Source: a virus
Lineage: Duplodnaviria; Caudoviricetes
Direction: 5' to 3' (one strand)
Virus record (IMG/VR): IMGVR_UViG_3300035534_000051
Span: 1 to 26,468 of that record
Length of the DNA: 26,468 bases
Positions within the stretch are counted from its first letter, which is position 1, and each line of letters opens with the position of its first letter. Position numbers and translations under genes: made by a program. Positions 2,249 through 15,675 of this stretch are shown here, piece by piece. The notes under the pieces were generated by a model. The model did no database searches, was not told where the DNA came from, and saw nothing but the letters and a program-made list of their open reading frames with translations.

Positions 2249-2286
2249 CTTTCCTCCTTGGGTTATGTGTTGCCGTGTGAGTATCT

Positions 2287-2315
2287 TTTGTAAACAAAAC
2301 CGATTCACTTGTAAA
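2287..2315 (-). promoter_or_regulatory. Putative leftward early promoter
   Basis: Minus strand TTTACA-N17-TACAAA, about 40 nt upstream of the nuclease ATG. Confidence 0.55.
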
Positions 2316-2501
2316 CCTTTTTGACGACTTTTTTTGTGTTTTTTGATAACTTTTGGCAAAAAATGACAACCTATAGGGAAACGTTGCCGCGCCCTATAAT
2401 GTATTGGATCGGTTCGGCCCGTGCTTGCGGTGCTTTTTTGATGTGTGCCGACAAAAAGGCTGAATTGAGTGCTTTCTATCGTCAATATATCGATTTTTCA
2501 G

Positions 2502-2550
2502 AAAAAAAATGAAACCCCCCAACCCTTGTGCATCAAGGGCTAGGGGGTTT
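2502..2550 (-). terminator. Stem-loop plus U tract (intrinsic terminator-like)
   Basis: 17-bp stem whose two plus-strand mismatches become G-U pairs on the minus strand, followed by TTTCATTTTTTTT. Confidence 0.6.
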
Positions 2551-2579
2551 TTTGTAAACTTTTTTTTGTTATTTGTAAA
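2551..2579 (-). promoter_or_regulatory. Second putative leftward promoter, back-to-back with the rightward promoter
   Basis: Minus strand TTTACA-N17-TACAAA, hexamers identical to the 2287-2315 element. Confidence 0.4.
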
Positions 2580-2616
2580 CTTTTTTGTTGACAACGACAA
2601 TCAAAACGTATACAAA
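2574..2616 (+). promoter_or_regulatory. Rightward early promoter overlapped by a 20-bp operator-like dyad
   Basis: TTGACA(2588-93)-N17-TACAAA; dyad TGTAAAC-N6-GTTGACA at 2574-2593. Confidence 0.65.
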
Positions 2617-2658
2617 GGACTCAACACGGACACAAAAACCTCAACCACGGAGAAGATC

Positions 2659-2709
2659 ATGACACGCACCGAACTCATCAACGAAATCGCAGACATCCGG
2701 ACCCGCTAA
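2659..2709 (+). CDS. 16-aa peptide MTRTELINEIADIRTR (leader peptide or gene remnant)
   Basis: ATG with GGAG RBS directly behind the early promoter/leader; followed by a GC hairpin at 2718-2740. Confidence 0.45.
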   Translation: MTRTELINEIADIRTR

Positions 2710-2762
2710 AACAAAGACGCCCCCTCTTCAAGGGGGGGCGAACTCTCAACACGGAGGCAGCC

Positions 2763-3062
2763 ATGGCAAACATCACTCACCCCACCGATTGGAATGGTCA
2801 TCGGAAGGTTCGCGGCACGGTCATTGAGTTCGGCGAGGTCGAGCTTAATCCGGTCAATGGTTATTGTGAACGGTTGGTCTTCAAGAGCTGTGAATACGAA
2901 GACCATGGGCTTTTACTGGAAAACGGTTTTCTGTCTCGGCCTGCAACGGCAAAGGACATCCGGGACCTGTTCGGGTTTGATCCGGATGACGTAAACAAAG
3001 CAATTCATAACATCATGGGCTGGCCGCAGAACACTGGCTGGCGGCTTTACGAGGGGGTTTAA
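2763..3062 (+). CDS. Hypothetical early protein (99 aa)
   Basis: GGAGG RBS, ATG, tight packing with the next ORF. Confidence 0.8.
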   Translation: MANITHPTDWNGHRKVRGTVIEFGEVELNPVNGYCERLVFKSCEYEDHGLLLENGFLSRPATAKDIRDLFGFDPDDVNKAIHNIMGWPQNTGWRLYEGV

Positions 3063-3065
3063 GAT

Positions 3066-3275
3066 ATGAAAGCATATACCGTAGAAATACACGATCATTG
3101 CGACTGCACGGTCACAGAGGGCGTCATGGCGGCGTCTCCGGCTGGGGCCTTGGAACTGATCGCAGGAACGGATGAATTGACCTATCGAGACAACTTTGAC
3201 GGTGGTGAGCATTTCTATATCGGGGTCCAGCCTCGGCACCGTCATGCTTGGGTATTTGACGAAAATTTTTCATAA
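3066..3275 (+). CDS. Hypothetical early protein (69 aa), paralog of 3288-3491
   Basis: GAGGGGG RBS; shares Y.VEI.DH...V.A...A.E...G.E...R...G..HF..G..P.H.HAWV with the next ORF. Confidence 0.8.
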   Translation: MKAYTVEIHDHCDCTVTEGVMAASPAGALELIAGTDELTYRDNFDGGEHFYIGVQPRHRHAWVFDENFS

Positions 3276-3287
3276 CAGGGGGAAATC

Positions 3288-3491
3288 GTGAGAACGTATA
3301 GAGTCGAAATCGTGGACCATCACATCGTTGAGAAGTCTGTCATTGTTGAAGCTGAAAACGCAGGGATCGCCGTCGAGCAGGTGGTCGGACCTGAAGAGGA
3401 GATTTCCTTTCGGTCCAGACTGTGTGGTCAGTTTCATTTCCGTGTCGGGCACTTTCCAAACCACTTGCATGCGTGGGTTTACCGGAAATAA
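3288..3491 (+). CDS. Hypothetical early protein (67 aa, GTG start), paralog of 3066-3275
   Basis: AGGGGG RBS; end-to-end similarity to the preceding ORF. Confidence 0.8.
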   Translation: MRTYRVEIVDHHIVEKSVIVEAENAGIAVEQVVGPEEEISFRSRLCGQFHFRVGHFPNHLHAWVYRK

Positions 3492-3506
3492 AATTCTTTT
3501 CATAAA

Positions 3507-3549
3507 TGTTTACTTTTTGGTTGACAATGGAAACCAGGTTGTTTACTTA
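3507..3549 (+). promoter_or_regulatory. Second rightward early promoter with the operator-like dyad
   Basis: TGTTTAC-N6-GTTGACA at 3507-3526; TTGACA-N17-TACTTA; downstream leader nearly identical to 2619-2652. Confidence 0.65.
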
Positions 3550-3590
3550 AAACTCAACATGGGCACAAAACCTCAACCACGGAGCTAAAA

Positions 3591-3782
3591 ATGGCAAACA
3601 TTACGAAGACAGTAGAAATCAACCCCGCACACACAGTTCAGGACGTAGCAAACTTTGCCGAAATGTCCCAGCACATGGATATTAACGCCATTAGGCTGAC
3701 CCTGGCCGGGGCAAGTGTGGACGCCGGCATGAGTGAAGGGAACGTCAGGACTGAATACCTGCTGTTTCTATTGAGGTCCTAA
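3591..3782 (+). CDS. Hypothetical early protein (63 aa)
   Basis: GGAG RBS; TAATG overlap with the next gene; begins MANIT like the 2763 ORF. Confidence 0.75.
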   Translation: MANITKTVEINPAHTVQDVANFAEMSQHMDINAIRLTLAGASVDAGMSEGNVRTEYLLFLLRS

Positions 3783-4012
3783 TGGACATCGACCTCAATT
3801 ACGATGGTATCCCGATCCAGGCCGACCTTAAGTTCGAGGACCGCCTGTTCGGGGACCGGGTTGTCGGGTTCGACATGTGGGTGGAGCGGGTCAGGTGCCT
3901 CTCGGAAGATCCGGAAGATGTGGCCTATATCGAAGAGTTTCAAACGGAAGCGGCAGAGTTCGCACGGAGGTGGTTTGAAGATTACCAACGCGAACTTGAG
4001 GCTGGAATCTAA
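3782..4012 (+). CDS. Small acidic hypothetical protein (76 aa)
   Basis: GAGGT RBS, translational coupling; about 21 D/E versus 8 K/R. Confidence 0.75.
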   Translation: MDIDLNYDGIPIQADLKFEDRLFGDRVVGFDMWVERVRCLSEDPEDVAYIEEFQTEAAEFARRWFEDYQRELEAGI

Positions 4013-4063
4013 AACGACGGAAACAACAACCTTGAGCTAATCTTTCAACACACGGAGGCAGTC

Positions 4064-5119
4064 ATGAAGCAAGGAAAAAGCAATCTCGAAGAACTGGCAA
4101 AGACGATCATCGCAGAGGCAGAGGCAAAAGAAGACATCATTTGCGACACCCCGGCTATCACTCTTTCTGAAAATGGCACCATCAAAATTGAGGACAGAGA
4201 GCTTGTCATCGGTGAACACTTTCATGGACAAATGGCGGCGCACCTGAACATCCCCAGGCGTTACTATGACCGACTGTGGGGGTTCCACCGGGATCTGTTG
4301 GTAAACGATGTCAACGCCCTTCTCACAAGGGAACCGAAACGGCGGATGGTTCGGACGCGGGGTGGATCGGCTAGGGCGTTTGCTAGGGCGTTTTTGTCTG
4401 ATAAGTATCGCATCCTGGACAACGAGCAGGTTTTAGAGTCGGTGCTACCGATCTTGACTAGCGGAGATGTGCAACTCGCGTCGATGGAGGTTACGGAATC
4501 CCGCCTTTATATCAAGGCAACTTTTCCCGAGTGTAGGGGAGAGGTAACGCCCGGCGACGTGGTTGAGTCTGGGGTCATGCTCACAAATTCAGAGGTTGGG
4601 CTTGGAGCCCTGGCAGTGACCCCGTTTGTCAATCGGTTAGTGTGCACGAATGGCATGGTCGTGAATGAGGCTGAATCCAAGTTCGGGATCAAAAAAATGC
4701 ACCTGGGGGGTCGGATTCAGCAGGAAGGTGTCTTCCTCCGGGACGATACGCTCGAAGCCTCGGACAAGGCGTTTTTTATGCAGGTCCGGGATGTCGTTGG
4801 TGCTCTTGGGCACAAGGACTCTTTCGACAAGATCCTCGACACCTTTCGGGAGGCGGCCGGGCAGGATATAGAAGGTGATCCGGTTCGAGGGATTGAAATC
4901 TTACAAAAACGAACGGGACTTCGTGACGGGGAGAAGGCCTCCGTCATTCGACACCTGATAGAGGGGGGCGACCTGTCAAAATGGGGCGTAGCAAACGCTG
5001 TGACCAGGACCGCCGTTGATGTTGAGAGTTATGACAGGGCAACTGATTTAGAGGCCCTGGGCGGAAAGATCGTCACCATGCCGGAAGGTTCGTGGCGTGA
5101 AATTGCAACGGCTCAATAA
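4064..5119 (+). CDS. DUF932-family phage/plasmid protein (351 aa)
   Basis: Family motifs RAFLSDKY..LDN, LYIK, NSEVG.GAL, RLVCTNGM, and W...NAVT; GGAGG RBS. Confidence 0.85.
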   Translation: MKQGKSNLEELAKTIIAEAEAKEDIICDTPAITLSENGTIKIEDRELVIGEHFHGQMAAHLNIPRRYYDRLWGFHRDLLVNDVNALLTREPKRRMVRTRGGSARAFARAFLSDKYRILDNEQVLESVLPILTSGDVQLASMEVTESRLYIKATFPECRGEVTPGDVVESGVMLTNSEVGLGALAVTPFVNRLVCTNGMVVNEAESKFGIKKMHLGGRIQQEGVFLRDDTLEASDKAFFMQVRDVVGALGHKDSFDKILDTFREAAGQDIEGDPVRGIEILQKRTGLRDGEKASVIRHLIEGGDLSKWGVANAVTRTAVDVESYDRATDLEALGGKIVTMPEGSWREIATAQ

Positions 5120-5129
5120 GGGGGCGACC

Positions 5130-5330
5130 ATGTATTACGCATTGATCGACCTCGCAGAGCGGAGCGGCCCCATTTGTGGGGTCGTTCGGGGGACGTATGA
5201 GTCGTGGGAGGATGCTTACCGGGCAAAGTGGAGTACATACGCAAGGCGACCCTATATAGCTCGGGTTGGCCGGTATTTGTTCCCCGGAGAGCTATATACA
5301 CGTGATGTTACCCACAAAGCTTCTTCTTGA
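5130..5330 (+). CDS. Hypothetical protein (66 aa)
   Basis: AAGGGGG RBS, ATG at 5130; last ORF before a strong terminator. Confidence 0.6.
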   Translation: MYYALIDLAERSGPICGVVRGTYESWEDAYRAKWSTYARRPYIARVGRYLFPGELYTRDVTHKASS

Positions 5331-5397: not shown

Positions 5398-5438
5398 AAG
5401 GCCGGGTTCATAGACTATGAACCCGGCCTTTTTGTTTT
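5398..5438 (+). terminator. Intrinsic terminator ending the early operon
   Basis: AAGGCCGGGTTCATAG-a-CTATGAACCCGGCCTT (16-bp perfect arms) followed by TTTGTTTT. Confidence 0.85.
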
Positions 5439-5459
5439 GAGGGTTCGTCAAGTAAGGGG

Positions 5460-5498
5460 TTGCAATTCCTTGTGGCTTTGTTTACTCTTTGGTTGACA
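5460..5498 (+). promoter_or_regulatory. Promoter of the Cro-like gene, overlapped by the operator-like dyad
   Basis: TTGCAA(5460-65)-N17-TACTCT(5483-88); dyad TGTTTAC-N6-GTTGACA at 5479-5498. Confidence 0.55.
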
Positions 5499-5530
5499 TT
5501 TGATTCTAAACGTAAGCGGGAGGTATAAAT

Positions 5531-5731
5531 ATGAATAAAATTCAGCAGTTAACAAATACCCTCGGGGTTTCACGACAAAGGATGAGCCGGATTAGGAAAG
5601 AGGGAGTCAGAACAAAGAAGGCCGCCCAAAGATTGAGCGGCGCGGTCTTACTTGCGTTTGGCGAAGAGACAAAACCAGAGGTCTTTATGTTCCCAGAAAC
5701 ATTGGGGCGGGATCACTGGTTGTTCAAATAG
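5531..5731 (+). CDS. Cro-like helix-turn-helix regulator (66 aa)
   Basis: GGAGGT RBS; 'QQLTNTLGVSRQRMSRIR' HTH pattern; position upstream of replication genes. Confidence 0.7.
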   Translation: MNKIQQLTNTLGVSRQRMSRIRKEGVRTKKAAQRLSGAVLLAFGEETKPEVFMFPETLGRDHWLFK

Positions 5732-5758
5732 AAAACCCCGGGCAACGACGCCCGGGGT
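5732..5758 (-). terminator. Intrinsic terminator for the antisense RNA
   Basis: ACCCCGGGC-N6-GCCCGGGGT followed by TTT on the minus strand. Confidence 0.6.
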
Positions 5759-5835
5759 ACACGGAAACAAAACCCTCTAACTTGGCGGAGGGGAAGGCGG
5801 CTGGATCGTGGGGGAACCAGTCACCCGGCTTTGAA
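5732..5835 (-). ncRNA. Putative ~100-nt antisense small RNA (positionally like lambda OOP RNA)
   Basis: Bounded by a near-consensus promoter at 5841-5869 and a 9-bp hairpin plus UUUU at 5732-5758; no ORF. Confidence 0.5.
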
Positions 5836-5840
5836 GTACA

Positions 5841-5869
5841 ACCCTATGCATCGTGGCCGGGAATGTCAA
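5841..5869 (-). promoter_or_regulatory. Sigma70-type promoter pointing leftward
   Basis: Minus strand TTGACA-N17-TAGGGT. Confidence 0.65.
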
Positions 5870-5894
5870 CTAAATAGGGATCGGGGTTTGTGAA

Positions 5895-6791
5895 TTGAAC
5901 AAAGACTTTCGAATCTCGGTGGCCATCACGGACCACCCGAAGATCATTAAGCTGATGCGACGGCTTGGGGATCGTGCGTTTTTCAATTTGGTCCGGCTGT
6001 GGGGGTACGTCGCTATCAATAAGCCGGATGGGAACCTGTCTGGGGTTGACTGTGAAGACTTGGAAATTGCAGCTGATTGGAGCGGGGAGCCTGGGGCGTT
6101 TGTTGATACGCTCCTGAGTCTTGGGTTGATTGACGATGTGTGTGGGGAGATGATTGTTCATGACTGGATCGACCACAACGAGTTCGCCTCATTTTCAAAA
6201 GCTCGGTCCGAAAAAGCCAAAAAGGCTGCTCGGAAGCGTTGGGAGAAAAAGTCAGGATCAAGTCAAGCAATGCCAAAAAATGCTACGAGCAATGCTCCGA
6301 GCATAAACGAGCAATGCTTGAGCGATGCTAAAAACGTTTTTAGCAATGCCCCTTCTCCTTCTCCTTCTCCTTCTCCTTCTCCTTCTCCTTCTCCTTCTTT
6401 AACTACTTCTTGCTCGGAGCCAGAAAAAAATGGCTCCAAGCCGCCAGCGAAAAAACGAAAGAAAAAACCTGCCGATGATTCGCCGGTTGTTGTTGGTTTG
6501 TCCCTTGTTGATGGTTCTGAATTTTTAGTGACAGAGCGTTGGGTGGAAGAGTTGCAACCCCTCTACCCTGCCGTAGATATTCCGGCCGAATGTCGCAAAA
6601 TGGCTGGGTGGCTGATCGGGAATCCCGGTAAGCGAAAAACGCCGCGAGGGATCAAGCGATTTGTTACCGGCTGGCTTGCGAAAGAGCAGGACCGAGGTGG
6701 AAGCCGGAACCGTGGGGGTTCTGCGACCTCTTTTTCGCATGAAAACGGAAACAACGGAAACAATGGGGGCTTTAAGTATGCAGAGCTTTGA
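5895..6791 (+). CDS. Phage replication initiator (lambda O/DnaD-like; 298 aa, TTG start)
   Basis: N-terminal 'DHPK...L.R.LG...LV.LW...HDW.DHN'; central iteron/low-complexity region; C-terminal 'YPAVD...M.GWL..NP.KRKT..GI.RF..GWL.K.QD'; followed by a DnaC-like gene. Confidence 0.8.
   Translation: MNKDFRISVAITDHPKIIKLMRRLGDRAFFNLVRLWGYVAINKPDGNLSGVDCEDLEIAADWSGEPGAFVDTLLSLGLIDDVCGEMIVHDWIDHNEFASFSKARSEKAKKAARKRWEKKSGSSQAMPKNATSNAPSINEQCLSDAKNVFSNAPSPSPSPSPSPSPSPSLTTSCSEPEKNGSKPPAKKRKKKPADDSPVVVGLSLVDGSEFLVTERWVEELQPLYPAVDIPAECRKMAGWLIGNPGKRKTPRGIKRFVTGWLAKEQDRGGSRNRGGSATSFSHENGNNGNNGGFKYAEL
6266..6349 (+). repeat. Iteron-like AGCAATGC repeats (putative replication origin)
   Basis: AGCAATGC at 6266, 6288, 6310 and 6342, plus AGCGATGC at 6321; ~11/22-bp phasing inside the initiator gene, like lambda ori. 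Confidence 0.7.
6351..6398 (+). repeat. (CCTTCT)x8 microsatellite encoding (Pro-Ser)8
   Basis: Eight perfect hexamer copies directly after the iterons. Confidence 0.95.
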
Positions 6792-7521
6792 ATGCAAGGT
6801 TGCAACCACGACAAAGGTCTGTCCTAAACATGGGGAATATCAGGCCCGGATCGTGGGCGGAGTTGCACTGGGAATCTGCCCGAAGTGTGCAGAGGAAAGC
6901 TACGAGAAAAAGTGTGATAAGGTGATCGCTGAAAACTCTCGGAAGCATAAAGAGCGGTTATATGCGTCACGCATCCCAAAAAGGTTTCGTGATCGTATGA
7001 TCGAGACTTTTGCGACGAAGCACGACAAACGAGCCGCAAAGGTCCTGGAGATAGCCTGGGCCTACGTAGCTGACTTTAAGACAACGAAAGCCCAGGGTCG
7101 ATCCCTTGTCTTTTGCGGAAACCCCGGGACCGGGAAAACCCACCTTGCGTGTGGGATCGCTCATCGGATCATGGGGGAAGGACACTCAGCGCTTTATACG
7201 ACGCTGATAGATCTTGTATTGGACATCAAGCGAACGTGGGGCCGTGAATCTGAATTTACCGAGCAGGAAGTTATATCCCGGTACTCTGTGCCGGAACTTT
7301 TGATTCTTGATGAGGTAGGGGTTCAGTTTGGAACCGATACTGAGCGACAAATCCTTTTTCGGGTGATCAACCGGCGGTATGAAGAAGTGTTGCCAACGAT
7401 TCTCATTAGCAATCTAGGGTTAAGTGATCTTGTGGAGATGGTCGGGGAACGCACCCTTGATCGCTTCAATGAGGGCGGGGGAAAAATCATCCCCTTTGCA
7501 TGGCAGAGCTACCGGAGGTAA
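6778..7521 (+). CDS. DnaC/IstB-like AAA+ helicase loader (247 aa)
   Basis: CPKHG...CPKC Zn motif, Walker A GNPGTGKT, Walker B LLILDEVG, 'RY...PTILISN', 'R.LDR'. Confidence 0.9.
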   Translation: MQSFECKVATTTKVCPKHGEYQARIVGGVALGICPKCAEESYEKKCDKVIAENSRKHKERLYASRIPKRFRDRMIETFATKHDKRAAKVLEIAWAYVADFKTTKAQGRSLVFCGNPGTGKTHLACGIAHRIMGEGHSALYTTLIDLVLDIKRTWGRESEFTEQEVISRYSVPELLILDEVGVQFGTDTERQILFRVINRRYEEVLPTILISNLGLSDLVEMVGERTLDRFNEGGGKIIPFAWQSYRR

Positions 7522-8988: not shown

Positions 8989-9789
8989 ATGATTCTGGGC
9001 AATGACGCGATACATAAAGAGCTAGGCATTCTGGAAATAGTGCAGAAGAATACTGATGAGCTTGTTCCCTATGTGAACAATGCTAAGGTTCACTCCAAAG
9101 AGCAGATTACAAGAATCATGTCATCGATAAAGGAATTCGGCTTTAACAACCCCATCCTACTCGATGGTGATAATGGGATTATTGCAGGGCACGGACGGCT
9201 AATGGCGGCCCAGAAACTAGGAATGACGAAGGTTCCTTGTGTGGAGTTGTGCCATTTGTCCGAGGCGCAGAAAAAAGCCTATACCCTGGCCGACAATCGG
9301 TTGGCCGAGGTTGGTGTGGAGTGGAATGAAGACGTCCTTGCCATTGAGCTTGAGGGGCTGGACGCGATGGACTTTGACCTCGATATGATTGGATTCGGGG
9401 ACTTTGGAGTCGGGGAAGGGAGTGGAACCGAGGACGTGGATAGGTACAGCTCGGACATCAAGGTCCCGATGTATGAGCCCGGAGACATCATCCCCGAAAT
9501 TTCAGAGCTGTATGATACAGAAAAGAGTGACACCCTCAAGGGCGAAATTCTTGAACACAACTTTCCTTCCGAAATTGAGAACTTTCTCCTTGCTGCCGCA
9601 GACCGAATGACTGTTTTCCGTTTTGATAAGATTGCCGATTTTTATGCAAATTCAGATCGGGAACTACAGGAGGTGTTTGAGATGCTTGCGCTCGTTATTA
9701 TTGATTTCCAAAAAGCGTACGAGAATGGGTATGTCGTGTTGACGGAGAAGATTAAAAAAAACCTGATCAAGGACCATGGAGATGAGTGA
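8989..9789 (+). CDS. ParB/Srx N-terminal domain protein fused to a helical domain typical of glycosyltransferase-associated phage genes
   Basis: L.PY.NNA..H...QI..I..SI.EFGF.NPIL.D....IIAGHGR..AA..LG...ADNRL; C-terminal 'P.YEP...FL..AA.R..VF....IA.FYA...ALVIIDF.KA.E.G'. Confidence 0.85.
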   Translation: MILGNDAIHKELGILEIVQKNTDELVPYVNNAKVHSKEQITRIMSSIKEFGFNNPILLDGDNGIIAGHGRLMAAQKLGMTKVPCVELCHLSEAQKKAYTLADNRLAEVGVEWNEDVLAIELEGLDAMDFDLDMIGFGDFGVGEGSGTEDVDRYSSDIKVPMYEPGDIIPEISELYDTEKSDTLKGEILEHNFPSEIENFLLAAADRMTVFRFDKIADFYANSDRELQEVFEMLALVIIDFQKAYENGYVVLTEKIKKNLIKDHGDE

Positions 9790-10639
9790 GGACTTTTGCG
9801 TTTTTATTTTGTCACACGGTAGGGCTGGCAACGTAATTACCTATAATTCACTGCAAAAGGCCGGATACACCGGGAAGATCGTTGTGGTTGTGGACAATGA
9901 GGATTCAACTATTGACGAGTATAAAGAGAAGTTCCCTGATGTAGCCGTGTTCGATAAAGTGGATATCGCAAAGAAGTTTGACACTGGCGACAACTTCGAG
10001 GATCGGAAAACTATTGTCTACGCCAGAAATGCATGCTTTGATATTGCTAGGGATCTTGGGTATCGGTATTTTTTACAGCTCGATGATGACTATACTTATT
10101 TCTCGTATACGGGGATCAGTGACGGCCTTTTTTTTCATAAGGTAGTCTTATCGTTTGACGAAATCGTAAGCGCCTTCCTGGAGTTTTTGAAATCGACGAA
10201 TGCGAAAACGGTTACCTTTGCCCAAGGGGGGGACCTGCTTGGTGGGAAAGATTCGTCTGTTGTAACGAAGAGGATTTTTCCGTTTTTGAAGCGAAAGGCT
10301 ATGAATTCTTTTTTCTGTGATGTCGAAAGGCCAATTACGTTCGTTGGTAGGATCAATGAGGACGTGAACACGTATGTCCTGCAAGGGCTTAAGGGAGATG
10401 TGTTCCTTACGGTTCCCGATGTCATGTTGAACCAGAAGACTACGCAGTCAAACAAAGGAGGGATGACCGATGTTTACCTCGAATCCGGCACGTATCTGAA
10501 AAGTTTTTATTCTGTCATGTATTGCCCGTCAGCGGTGAAGGTTGCGACGATGGGGCATAAGGGGCGCAGGCTACACCATCGGGTTTGCTGGAACAATGCG
10601 ACCCCGAAGTTGCTGCGGGAAGAACACAAAAAGCCGTGA
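9782..10639 (+). CDS. GT-A fold glycosyltransferase, TAGT/GREB1-like (putative DNA-modifying); alternative start 9776
   Basis: FILSHGRA, ARN, QLDDDY (DxD), GRINED, Q..TQ.N.GG motifs; overlaps the ParB stop codon. Confidence 0.8.
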   Translation: MSEDFCVFILSHGRAGNVITYNSLQKAGYTGKIVVVVDNEDSTIDEYKEKFPDVAVFDKVDIAKKFDTGDNFEDRKTIVYARNACFDIARDLGYRYFLQLDDDYTYFSYTGISDGLFFHKVVLSFDEIVSAFLEFLKSTNAKTVTFAQGGDLLGGKDSSVVTKRIFPFLKRKAMNSFFCDVERPITFVGRINEDVNTYVLQGLKGDVFLTVPDVMLNQKTTQSNKGGMTDVYLESGTYLKSFYSVMYCPSAVKVATMGHKGRRLHHRVCWNNATPKLLREEHKKP

Positions 10640-13729: not shown

Positions 13730-13767
13730 AAAAAGCCCCCGGTTCTTTATCGAGCCGGGGGCTTTTT
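13730..13767. terminator. Bidirectional terminator between convergent genes
   Basis: AAAAAGCCCCCGGTTC-N6-GAGCCGGGGGCTTTTT. Confidence 0.9.
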
Positions 13768-14258
13768 CATGTGAGGTTCACTTCGATGTTCTTTTTGATC
13801 TGGTGAACGACTTTCGGGGCGTAGTGCCTTGTAAGTAAGTCGTTCAAGAAGTCGAAGCCCCCCTTTTTCACACGGTTTATTGCATGAGTTAGAAACGGCT
13901 GTCCCTTCCTTGCTGGCTGGTGGACCTCTCGGGCATAAATGATCCTTCCACCGATTACAAAGCGCAGACGCGCCCTTTCCGGGTTCTGTTGGTACCAGCT
14001 TTTTGAGTGATATTTTTTCCGTTCTCCACGAGGGGGGTTTTTCTGAATGTTCGGGCGGATTGTCAGGGGACCCCTTCCATCATGCACGGCTCTGGCGTAT
14101 GGAAGGTTCGAGCCAACTGAGGCCGCACCAACGCCCTCAACGCTTGCTTGGATAGACTTTCTCAAGTCCCCTGTCCTGAACGGAATTTGACCCGTCTTTG
14201 TGGCTTCTGCCCGGACCTTTTCAGCTATTTGGAGTGCTATCTGGGTCGAGATGTCCAT
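13767..14258 (-). CDS. HK97 gp10 / Mu gpG-like neck or tail-completion protein
   Basis: P.RTG.LR.SI...VGSN.PYA..VH.G...QPFL motifs; GGAG RBS. Confidence 0.75.
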   Translation of the reverse strand: MDISTQIALQIAEKVRAEATKTGQIPFRTGDLRKSIQASVEGVGAASVGSNLPYARAVHDGRGPLTIRPNIQKNPPRGERKKYHSKSWYQQNPERARLRFVIGGRIIYAREVHQPARKGQPFLTHAINRVKKGGFDFLNDLLTRHYAPKVVHQIKKNIEVNLT

Positions 14259-14260
14259 GC

Positions 14261-15520
14261 CTATATCTCCACGGACTTGCGGAATGATTTGAGTGCGTCG
14301 GTCAAGGTTTCCTCCGGGGTGGTATCTACGGTATCGGAGGGGGCATACCCCAACTCTTCCCGGGCTTCATCGATTGTCAGCACACCGCTTCCGATCATGG
14401 CGCTATAGTATGCGCTCGGGGGCTCTGAAAAGTTGCCGTCCATCTTCGCAAAGCGGAATACTCCGAGACCCATGGCCCCAAACAGTTGGTTTAGACGGCG
14501 TTCCCATGCGACTTGATAGGGTTGAATGGTTGTTTCTTGAAACAGTTGAATTTGACCAAAAATCTCCCCACCACCGCCGAGCTGTCCAGATGCGACGACC
14601 CCGGCAACTCTTGGGGGTACGCGATGTGCAGAAAGGATATTGTCGCGACACTGGAGTCGTAGCTTCTCGAAGGATAGATCCCGATCCTTCATATCCCCTG
14701 CGATCTTCTCAAAGCGAACTTTCACGTCCTGATCCGGGATGGGAAGATAAAGCGTTTTGTGCGAGTTATCGAGGCCTTTTATATTGCTTTGGAGGAACGA
14801 AAGAACGGCCGTTTCCGTGTCTTCATCGAATGACCCCCCTTCTACGATCACCGCAAGATCGGGAATCCCGCTGTTTAGGAAAAAGTTCTGATTGTATCGT
14901 GTAGCATAGTAGTCGAGCTCGATGTCTGGGAGGCAACCAGTCCAGTCTGGGAGGCCATAAAGTCGATGCCTGTTTGACTGGTTGGGGAGGTAGAGGATCG
15001 AGTTGTCCCGCTCACCCGGTTTGAATGCGGGCCACGGCTCCATCACCCCTTCGTCGTTAAGGTACATGAAAGGGGTTGATGCCCCCCTTGGTCGAAAGTA
15101 CACGCGGTCTGCTGGCAGGTAGTATAGCTCGGCGGGCCGACCGGCTGTATCTGGCACGACCTCGATAGCGCCCGCACCACAAGCGTGGAAGTCCATCCCC
15201 GCCTGCCGCATCACGTCAGAAAACGACTGTCCGTATTCATTCACGACCGCCAGCCGGTGATCTATTTTGTCCTGGCTTTCAGACAACGAATCTATCCCCA
15301 GACAAAACGATGTAGTTGTCTTCACCGCCAGCGACAATCCGTGGAATGATTGTTTGTCTTGGAGCGAAGCAAAGTAAGGGATTAGAGCCCCGTATTCCTC
15401 GGAAAAGGGGTGCGGTATGACGTCAACACCCTCCGGGATGGTCTGTGCGGACGTTTTTTTGATCGGCTCGGACTTGGCTACCAGTACCGTCTTTGCCCCT
15501 CCAAATGCGCTACTTGACAT
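14261..15520 (-). CDS. Portal protein (PBSX / P2 gpQ-like), 419 aa
   Basis: YGLPDW, YN..FF.N.GIP, F..LR....D.IL.AHRVPP...G, LTIDEARE.LGY.P; GGAGGT RBS. Confidence 0.92.
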   Translation of the reverse strand: MSSSAFGGAKTVLVAKSEPIKKTSAQTIPEGVDVIPHPFSEEYGALIPYFASLQDKQSFHGLSLAVKTTTSFCLGIDSLSESQDKIDHRLAVVNEYGQSFSDVMRQAGMDFHACGAGAIEVVPDTAGRPAELYYLPADRVYFRPRGASTPFMYLNDEGVMEPWPAFKPGERDNSILYLPNQSNRHRLYGLPDWTGCLPDIELDYYATRYNQNFFLNSGIPDLAVIVEGGSFDEDTETAVLSFLQSNIKGLDNSHKTLYLPIPDQDVKVRFEKIAGDMKDRDLSFEKLRLQCRDNILSAHRVPPRVAGVVASGQLGGGGEIFGQIQLFQETTIQPYQVAWERRLNQLFGAMGLGVFRFAKMDGNFSEPPSAYYSAMIGSGVLTIDEAREELGYAPSDTVDTTPEETLTDALKSFRKSVEI

Positions 15521-15675
15521 AGAATTACCTCCGGTTTTTTCAAGTGTTCTTATGCACACTTGTTTACTATTTGTATGACAATTCTTTCTGGTTTGCACAA
15601 AATAGAAATATTGCTACTGGACATGACACCCTGCTGGATAGCATTTCGGGGAAAAACGAAACCCAAAGGTGAACA
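15521..15675. promoter_or_regulatory. Divergent late control region (portal leftward, head genes rightward)
   Basis: AT-rich 155-bp gap; 7-bp inverted repeat CAAGTGT-N8-ACACTTG (15541-15562) and a 17/20 copy of the early operator-like dyad (15561-15580). Confidence 0.55.

Follow-up and report, generated by a model that had tools for sequence, protein, structure and literature searches.

A predicted RNA of about 105 nt, encoded on the minus strand at positions 5730..5834 of a phage genome fragment, may well be a trans-acting antisense silencer of the phage's early leaders, located in the position of OOP in lambda; we give this reading an even chance. The promoter, the terminator, an open seed and the complementarity are all seen or predicted in the DNA sequence, and the steps of the mechanism are what we infer from them. 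If true, this would mean that an RNA runs a regulon in a phage, through a leader common to shuffled early cassettes, as a modular and simple alternative to CI. The candidate switch would be compact (105 nt with a 14-nt seed), working as a toehold and then by occlusion of the Shine-Dalgarno (SD) sequence. If the RNA is merely OOP-like, it would be ordinary. A literature search, in which subscription and older papers were poorly covered, found no description of the RNA, or of any phage RNA with several early leaders as its targets. To our knowledge, each of the known phage immunity RNAs acts on one operon or one antirepressor message.

The window, i.e. the whole stretch of 26,468 nucleotides that was analysed, is a linear piece of the genome of a tailed phage (CheckV 31%). 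A near-identical 34-kb record shares its start and has tail genes in addition. The sequencing runs containing the phage are DNA, and 22 of 24 rows are oil-field metagenomes; the phage is uncultured, from an oil field, subsurface and unstudied. From the names of homologues, our guess is that the host is a sulfate-reducing deltaproteobacterium. The leftward operon comprises a PD-(D/E)XK nuclease gene and the gene for a phrog_3657 protein, and a bidirectional hairpin (2512-2550) lies between it and the rightward early genes. The latter have two promoters, P1 and P2, and include a DUF932 gene; nothing in Pfam or PHROG matches the early ORFs downstream of P1 and P2 (a 16-aa ORF is too short to scan). 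A terminator (5398-5430) is followed by a gene for a 66-aa probable helix-turn-helix (HTH), Cro-like protein (5531..5731, plus strand). The antisense unit sits between this gene and that of the replication initiation protein (rep; 5895..6791, plus strand), after which come a DnaC-like loader (6778-7521), SSB, terminase, and head and tail genes.

The predicted promoter of the antisense RNA (5841..5869, minus strand) has a -35 TTGACA at 5869-5864, a spacer of 17 nt and a -10 TAGGGT at 5846-5841. These hexamers were noted in a preliminary description of this DNA, and prove to be the sole match of TTGACA-N16-18-TAnnnT on both strands of the window. The pattern is weak alone (0.33 matches expected; at least one match in 32 of 100 shuffles), and the promoter was absent from the output of a standard promoter scanner. 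The hairpin and U tract described as closing the unit were likewise confirmed as an intrinsic terminator (5731..5758, minus strand), with a 10-bp stem (8 G-C) at 5758-5735 followed by UUUUCU, the U tract being on the minus strand only. According to our own script it is one of five strong hairpin-plus-U sites in the window. The antisense promoter lies ~90 nt upstream of it, and no minus-strand gene is nearby for it to serve; the nearest annotated one upstream ends at 13767 and has its own hairpin. By our rough estimate, a promoter would lie by chance at most 150 nt upstream of one of five terminators in 1-2% of cases.

The start of the RNA, placed by its spacing from the -10 box, would be at 5834-5836. 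In its predicted fold (z = -2.8), the 105-nt RNA has two stem-loops, then an open stretch of 14 nt, and finally the terminator. Stem-loop 1, the 5' domain, covers 5795..5826 and stem-loop 2 covers 5773..5792 (both minus strand); the 5' arm of stem-loop 2 contains the anti-SD CCUCCG (5791-5786), and its 3' arm contains GAGGG, which pairs with leader CCUC. The open stretch (5759..5772, minus strand) is the single-stranded G/U seed UUUUGUUUCCGUGU. To open the seed would take 1.1 kcal/mol, and to open the 5' ends of the targets 1.6-2.6 kcal/mol. A scan against Rfam 15 gave no family at gathering score, and only a sub-threshold anti-hemB match over 5728-5794 (23 bits vs a gathering score of 49.5). 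The unit had been called ORF-less, which holds in that no complete ORF of at least 20 aa lies inside the predicted RNA, but two frames overlap it: a 40-aa minus-strand frame begins at 5770 and reads through the terminator, and a doubtful 31-aa ORF is found on the plus strand (5782..5877; TTG start, no evident SD), its product being absent from the protein collection. As a candidate RNA, the antisense unit is real and well bounded.

The segment 5759-5777 is identical in 17 of 19 positions to 2624-2642, as previously described, and no other match in the window comes closer than 5 mismatches. Neither of the two differing positions would pair as G-U; each is a true mismatch. The 3557 copy has two G-U-compatible changes, one mismatch and one gap within the 19-mer. 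The similarity noted for 3557-3574 therefore stands, with its two G-U-compatible changes, but G-U pairing is a weak argument for function, because the sense strand has A or C in 16 of the 19 positions, making nearly any transition wobble-compatible, and because the best target (P1) carries two true mismatches. We found additional copies at 2278-2260 (minus strand), in the leader of the leftward operon, and at 4014-4033, which is intergenic. The likeness to the P1 leader extends across the SD, with 28 of 38 columns identical, the 3' half of the RNA being an antisense copy of the whole early leader from +1 to SD. It starts at the predicted +1 and ends at the terminator stem, and does not include promoter sequence upstream.

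Three early promoters precede such leaders. P1 and its leader occupy 2588..2658 (plus strand; TTGACA-17-TACAAA, leader from 2624), P2 and its leader 3521..3590 (plus strand; TTGACA-17-TACTTA, leader from 3557), and the leftward PL and its leader 2249..2315 (minus strand; TTTACA-17-TACAAA, leader from 2278). PL, which had been missed before, lies ahead of the nuclease gene. The -10 boxes of all three lack the final T, and all start sites are predicted. Each leader holds 2-3 ACA triplets. The P1 and P2 leaders agree in 26 of 29 columns while the promoter spacers agree in 8 of 17, so the early leader looks selected. A 17/19 non-coding pair alone was found in 11 of 90 other loci (at least 8 kb each; 138 before de-duplication), and a +1-anchored pair, starting 5-9 nt after a promoter pattern as here, in none of the 90.

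When the RNA was co-folded with 42 gene leaders, those of P1 (-25.0 kcal/mol), PL (-21.4) and P2 (-21.0) came out on top, followed by one at -18.9; each of these three belongs to the gene that stands first behind one of the early promoters. They are one signal seen three times, not independent hits, since the P1, P2 and PL leaders are paralogues. None of 21 decoy segments ranked all three on top, although one had a single hit at -26.5, as strong as that of the real RNA, and for another, which includes the 2749 leader copy, P1 and P2 took the second and third ranks. After dinucleotide shuffling of the 37-nt middle of the RNA, the energies of P1, P2 and PL were reached by 0, 1 and 3 of 400 sequences respectively, and their sum by none of 400. 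The three leaders do not stand out in a raw duplex scan of the window as a whole: two coding sites score above P1, which is third among non-self sites, P2 is 22nd among them, and PL is not among the best 40 listed. The ACACGGAG core that had been proposed to pair with the SDs at 2749 and 4050 is present at both, over the SD of a 99-aa gene (2749..2756, plus strand; a weak site) and, together with the intergenic motif copy, over that of the DUF932 gene (4014..4057, plus strand; a weaker site). They are not supported as main targets, their leaders ranking only 13 and 10 of 42 in the co-folds.

The co-folds suggest how silencing might proceed. In them the seed pairs with each leader starting at +1; the P1 and P2 leaders go on to invade stem-loop 2 through its 3' arm, and in P1, P2 and PL alike the SD is bound by the released 5' arm. 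Host RNA polymerase would transcribe the RNA from a promoter without an operator, and the open G/U seed would dock on the unstructured A/C-rich 5' end of the P1, P2 and PL transcripts. Pairing would then extend into stem-loop 2, and its freed 5' arm CCUCCG would cover the SD. The first gene of each operon would go untranslated, and decay or polarity would reduce the remaining genes. The RNA is perfectly complementary to the cro-rep intergenic mRNA and probably also damps the replication genes in cis. A comparable mode of pairing has been described for GcvB, whose G/U-rich strand binds ACA-rich enhancers located before the SD of several mRNAs (PMC3879156, in part); the candidate RNA likewise has a G/U-rich single strand facing ACA-containing leaders upstream of the SD. 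GcvB is a host metabolic sRNA, and the Rfam scan, which alone bears on a sequence relation, gave none. Of the trans-acting multi-target silencer first proposed, we retain the independent antisense unit and the in silico pairing with several leaders, and add a third leader and the anti-SD; the G-U argument, the choice of 2749 and 4050 as chief targets, and a relationship to P4 CI or P1 C4 are not supported.

Protein control is suggested as well. An operator-like 18-mer, GTWWAC-N6-GTTGAC, occurs on the plus strand over the -35 of P1 (2575..2592), over the -35 of P2 (3508..3525) and in the promoter region of the Cro-like gene (5480..5497). These three copies compare with 0.34 expected (one mismatch allowed) and none in 100 shuffles. 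The repeat, which is absent from the antisense promoter, may be an operator or part of a duplicated promoter cassette. The promoter of the HTH gene may be TTGCAA-17-TACTCT (5460-5497), in which case the repeat would cover its -10 and start; a TTGACA at 5493 has no -10 at normal spacing. The RNA would likely work jointly with a DNA-binding repressor at the 18-bp sites, either as a lysogeny or immunity lock or in early-phase shut-off. The Cro-like label is itself drawn from size, place and Atlas features: the 66-aa protein has no Pfam or PHROG match, searches returned only itself, a 90% cluster mate and a spurious repeat protein, and a single-sequence model (pLDDT 61) gave no fold match. It had been remarked that no cI gene is visible, and indeed three records yielded no peptidase S24, HTH_3 or phage integrase. 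However, these are all linear fragments (CheckV 17-39%), so the missing cI carries no weight; the HTH_3 model misses the 66-aa protein too, and therefore neither 'no cI' nor 'temperate' is established.

Several known RNAs invite comparison. P4 CI RNA (seqA/seqC) is described as a small RNA that pairs with leaders and blocks the phage's own early and replication functions (PMC4825925, in part); leader pairing against own early functions is also predicted here from sequence. CI is processed from the transcript under its control and pairs with flanking sites, whereas the candidate RNA has its own opposite-strand promoter and lies 2-3.5 kb from three separate leaders. The C4 RNA of P1 and P7 pairs in trans near the ribosome-binding site (RBS) and has a role in immunity, according to parts of PMC12197685 and PMC8198154. 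It is part of the c4-icd-ant operon, its target being the antirepressor, whereas our RNA has no Rfam match and no icd or ant was recognised. Pairing in trans at or before the RBS, as in P4 CI and P1 C4, is seen here in silico only. The Rfam result speaks against CI/C4 membership, and with a separate transcription unit and no icd, kil or ant gene recognised, the kinship once suggested is not upheld. By analogy, the RNA would work like P4 CI, P1 C4 and P22 sar, yet would not be a CI/C4 member. P22 sar overlaps its one target, ant, whereas the candidate RNA has several imperfect distant targets. Like the candidate, sar is an independent short antisense unit, and it blocks translation initiation (PMC12197685 and PMC8198154, in part).

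The position is that of lambda OOP, which has its own leftward promoter and terminator and is antisense just upstream of the replication initiator (PMC12197685 and PMC7067206, in part). The candidate is likewise an antisense unit with its own promoter and terminator directly upstream of such a gene. OOP works in cis, overlapping cII at its 3' end, whereas here the RNA matches distant leaders, and there is no cII, just the doubtful 31-aa ORF between the cro-like gene and rep, so it is not an OOP member. The gene order of repressor, antisense RNA and rep is also that reported for plasmids R1 (CopA) and pMV158 (RNAII) (PMC5717011, in part), the repressor label here being inferred. In contrast to CopA and RNAII, the candidate RNA seems not to overlap the rep initiation region, its Tap-like ORF is doubtful and it has extra trans targets. 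It covers the start of the SD-less 31-aa ORF, and its own start lies ~60 nt upstream of the rep start.

Other explanations must be weighed against trans silencing. The motif could be an oriented cis element, that is, a sense-strand site (a nut-like RNA site, a translational enhancer, or a stoperator- or SAS-like site) behind early promoters and after the cro-like gene, to which the antisense promoter and terminator would be unrelated; we think this rather unlikely. Lambda nutR lies after cro, which matches the position of the 5759 copy. All five copies, 5759 included, follow the direction of sense transcription, and they are asymmetric and lie in intergenic DNA, like stoperator, SAS and nut repeats; SAS and stoperators are precedents for oriented repeats at gene starts (PMC3203893, in part). 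The sense-strand copy, too, is predicted to be single-stranded. Against this, the 5759 copy lies downstream of a hairpin, and no plus-strand U-tract terminator follows between this copy and rep; the SD-like GGAGG of this copy is folded away with no start codon at normal spacing. A cis element also leaves unexplained why the motif exactly fills the open part of an opposite-strand promoter-terminator unit.

It is unlikely, in our view, that the RNA acts in cis only, limiting the replication genes as an antisense RNA of the lambda OOP or plasmid CopA/RNAII type, with the leader likeness a leftover of sequence recycling. The layout of small repressor, antisense RNA and rep, as in R1 and pMV158, and the OOP position would both fit, perfect complementarity to the overlapping mRNA is automatic, and the 31-aa ORF could serve as a Tap-like leader. 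The distance to the rep start, the absence of cII and that of the 31-aa product from the protein collection argue the other way, and a cis-only RNA would explain neither the leader conservation nor the top-three ranking. Furthermore, blocking 5730-5834 hardly moves the accessibility of the rep RBS (0.35 to 0.31, 0.56 to 0.59 and 0.52 to 0.59). The sense motif was also considered as an anti-SD element on the rep RBS and rejected, the effect being weak and unsupported. We consider it improbable that the copy is a relic, left when a former promoter-leader cassette was scattered by recombination, next to a chance pair of promoter-like hexamers. Early promoter cassettes scattered in this way are known from the T4-type PeSL (PMC2839356, in part), and the early region of our phage consists of duplicated cassettes shuffled between strains. 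The frequencies of the 17/19 pair in other loci and of the promoter pattern in shuffles are in keeping with chance, and the antisense unit was not found in relatives. On the other hand, the likeness stops short of the upstream promoter sequence, and promoter, terminator and structure coincide. Two strain contigs, which span the RNA region wholly or partly, are unchanged over 5499-5940 and 5584-5803, though the strains are very close.

A bolder form of trans silencing, which we hold to be doubtful, is that a single RNA, transcribed independently, acts as master repressor of all early cassettes and damps the replication operon in cis, with no CI protein. Were this so, it would block three cassettes here and four or more in another strain via the shared leader from +1 to SD, and a gene captured behind a cassette would come under control of the RNA. 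Early transcripts would titrate the RNA, resulting in a threshold switch.

Relatives were sought by several routes. The rep-protein search of viruses gave 80 loci, of which 62 were inspected including the near-identical record; TGTCAA and ACACGG both within 260 nt before rep occurred in none of the 61 others. The same search found the layout in none of 18 loci inspected among 20 from genomes, and among 61 of 80 metagenome loci inspected the reverse promoter pattern occurred in one, inside an upstream ORF. A single-protein metagenome search found no relative, and a PD-(D/E)XK search gave 20 loci, of which 13 were mapped and none had the layout. Motif scans of viral contigs returned only the near-identical record and one chance match in an A/T-rich record, and annotated phages gave no match. 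In the phylum to which a Desulfobacula genome belongs, none of 401 genomes had the promoter-leader pattern; one weak DNA match among them was rejected as it lies inside a transposase-like ORF. An unrelated phage has, some 1250-2010 nt upstream of its match to the nuclease, an operon of a cro-like gene and rep that diverges from early genes, with no obvious cI ORF between them.

Strain variants were seen in contigs from four DNA runs. In these the P1 leader precedes a different gene, and a further TTGACA-17-TACTTA promoter copy is joined to the P1 leader. One leader variant, a loose-end consensus from a single low-depth contig, holds CCTCTAAC, which is identical to 5774-5781; P1 in the window is one base shorter there. 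A third strain contig has 12 differences and one gap over 5409-5887, their positions mostly not shown. The 90% cluster mate of the 66-aa HTH protein has four substitutions, so several of these 12 may lie outside the RNA. The region 2659-5330 is modular, with paralogous small ORFs at 3066 and 3288 and common N-termini at 2763 and 3591. Strain-specific inserts occur after 2652 and between 5299 and 5409, and the middle of the nuclease gene is replaced. The 16-aa ORF with the 2720 hairpin was considered as an attenuator and rejected, being skipped in one strain contig and hence not conserved.

A second candidate non-coding RNA lies between the divergent promoters (2395-2555, plus strand), with TATAAT at 2395, a long stem at 2409-2471 and an end at the 2512-2550 hairpin (fold z -4.0). 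As a silencer of the leaders, the RNA at 2407-2555 was rejected, since it did not rank the early leaders on top in co-folds. One strain has a 20-nt insertion at 2414. In one run, 2427-2462 is flanked by loose ends resembling a CRISPR repeat (type I-C-like), which makes this stretch a probable protospacer and a possible clue to the host. An 18-19-nt likeness links 2362-2379, upstream of the second RNA, with 5861-5880 in the antisense -35 region, and may be a shared site or chance. Elsewhere in the window, the portal and gp10-like genes are reversed within the head cluster (13767-15598, minus strand) and end at a hairpin near 13730-13770. At 8989-10639, a ParB-N-domain protein is followed by a TET-associated glycosyltransferase (PF20691), possibly a DNA modification pair.
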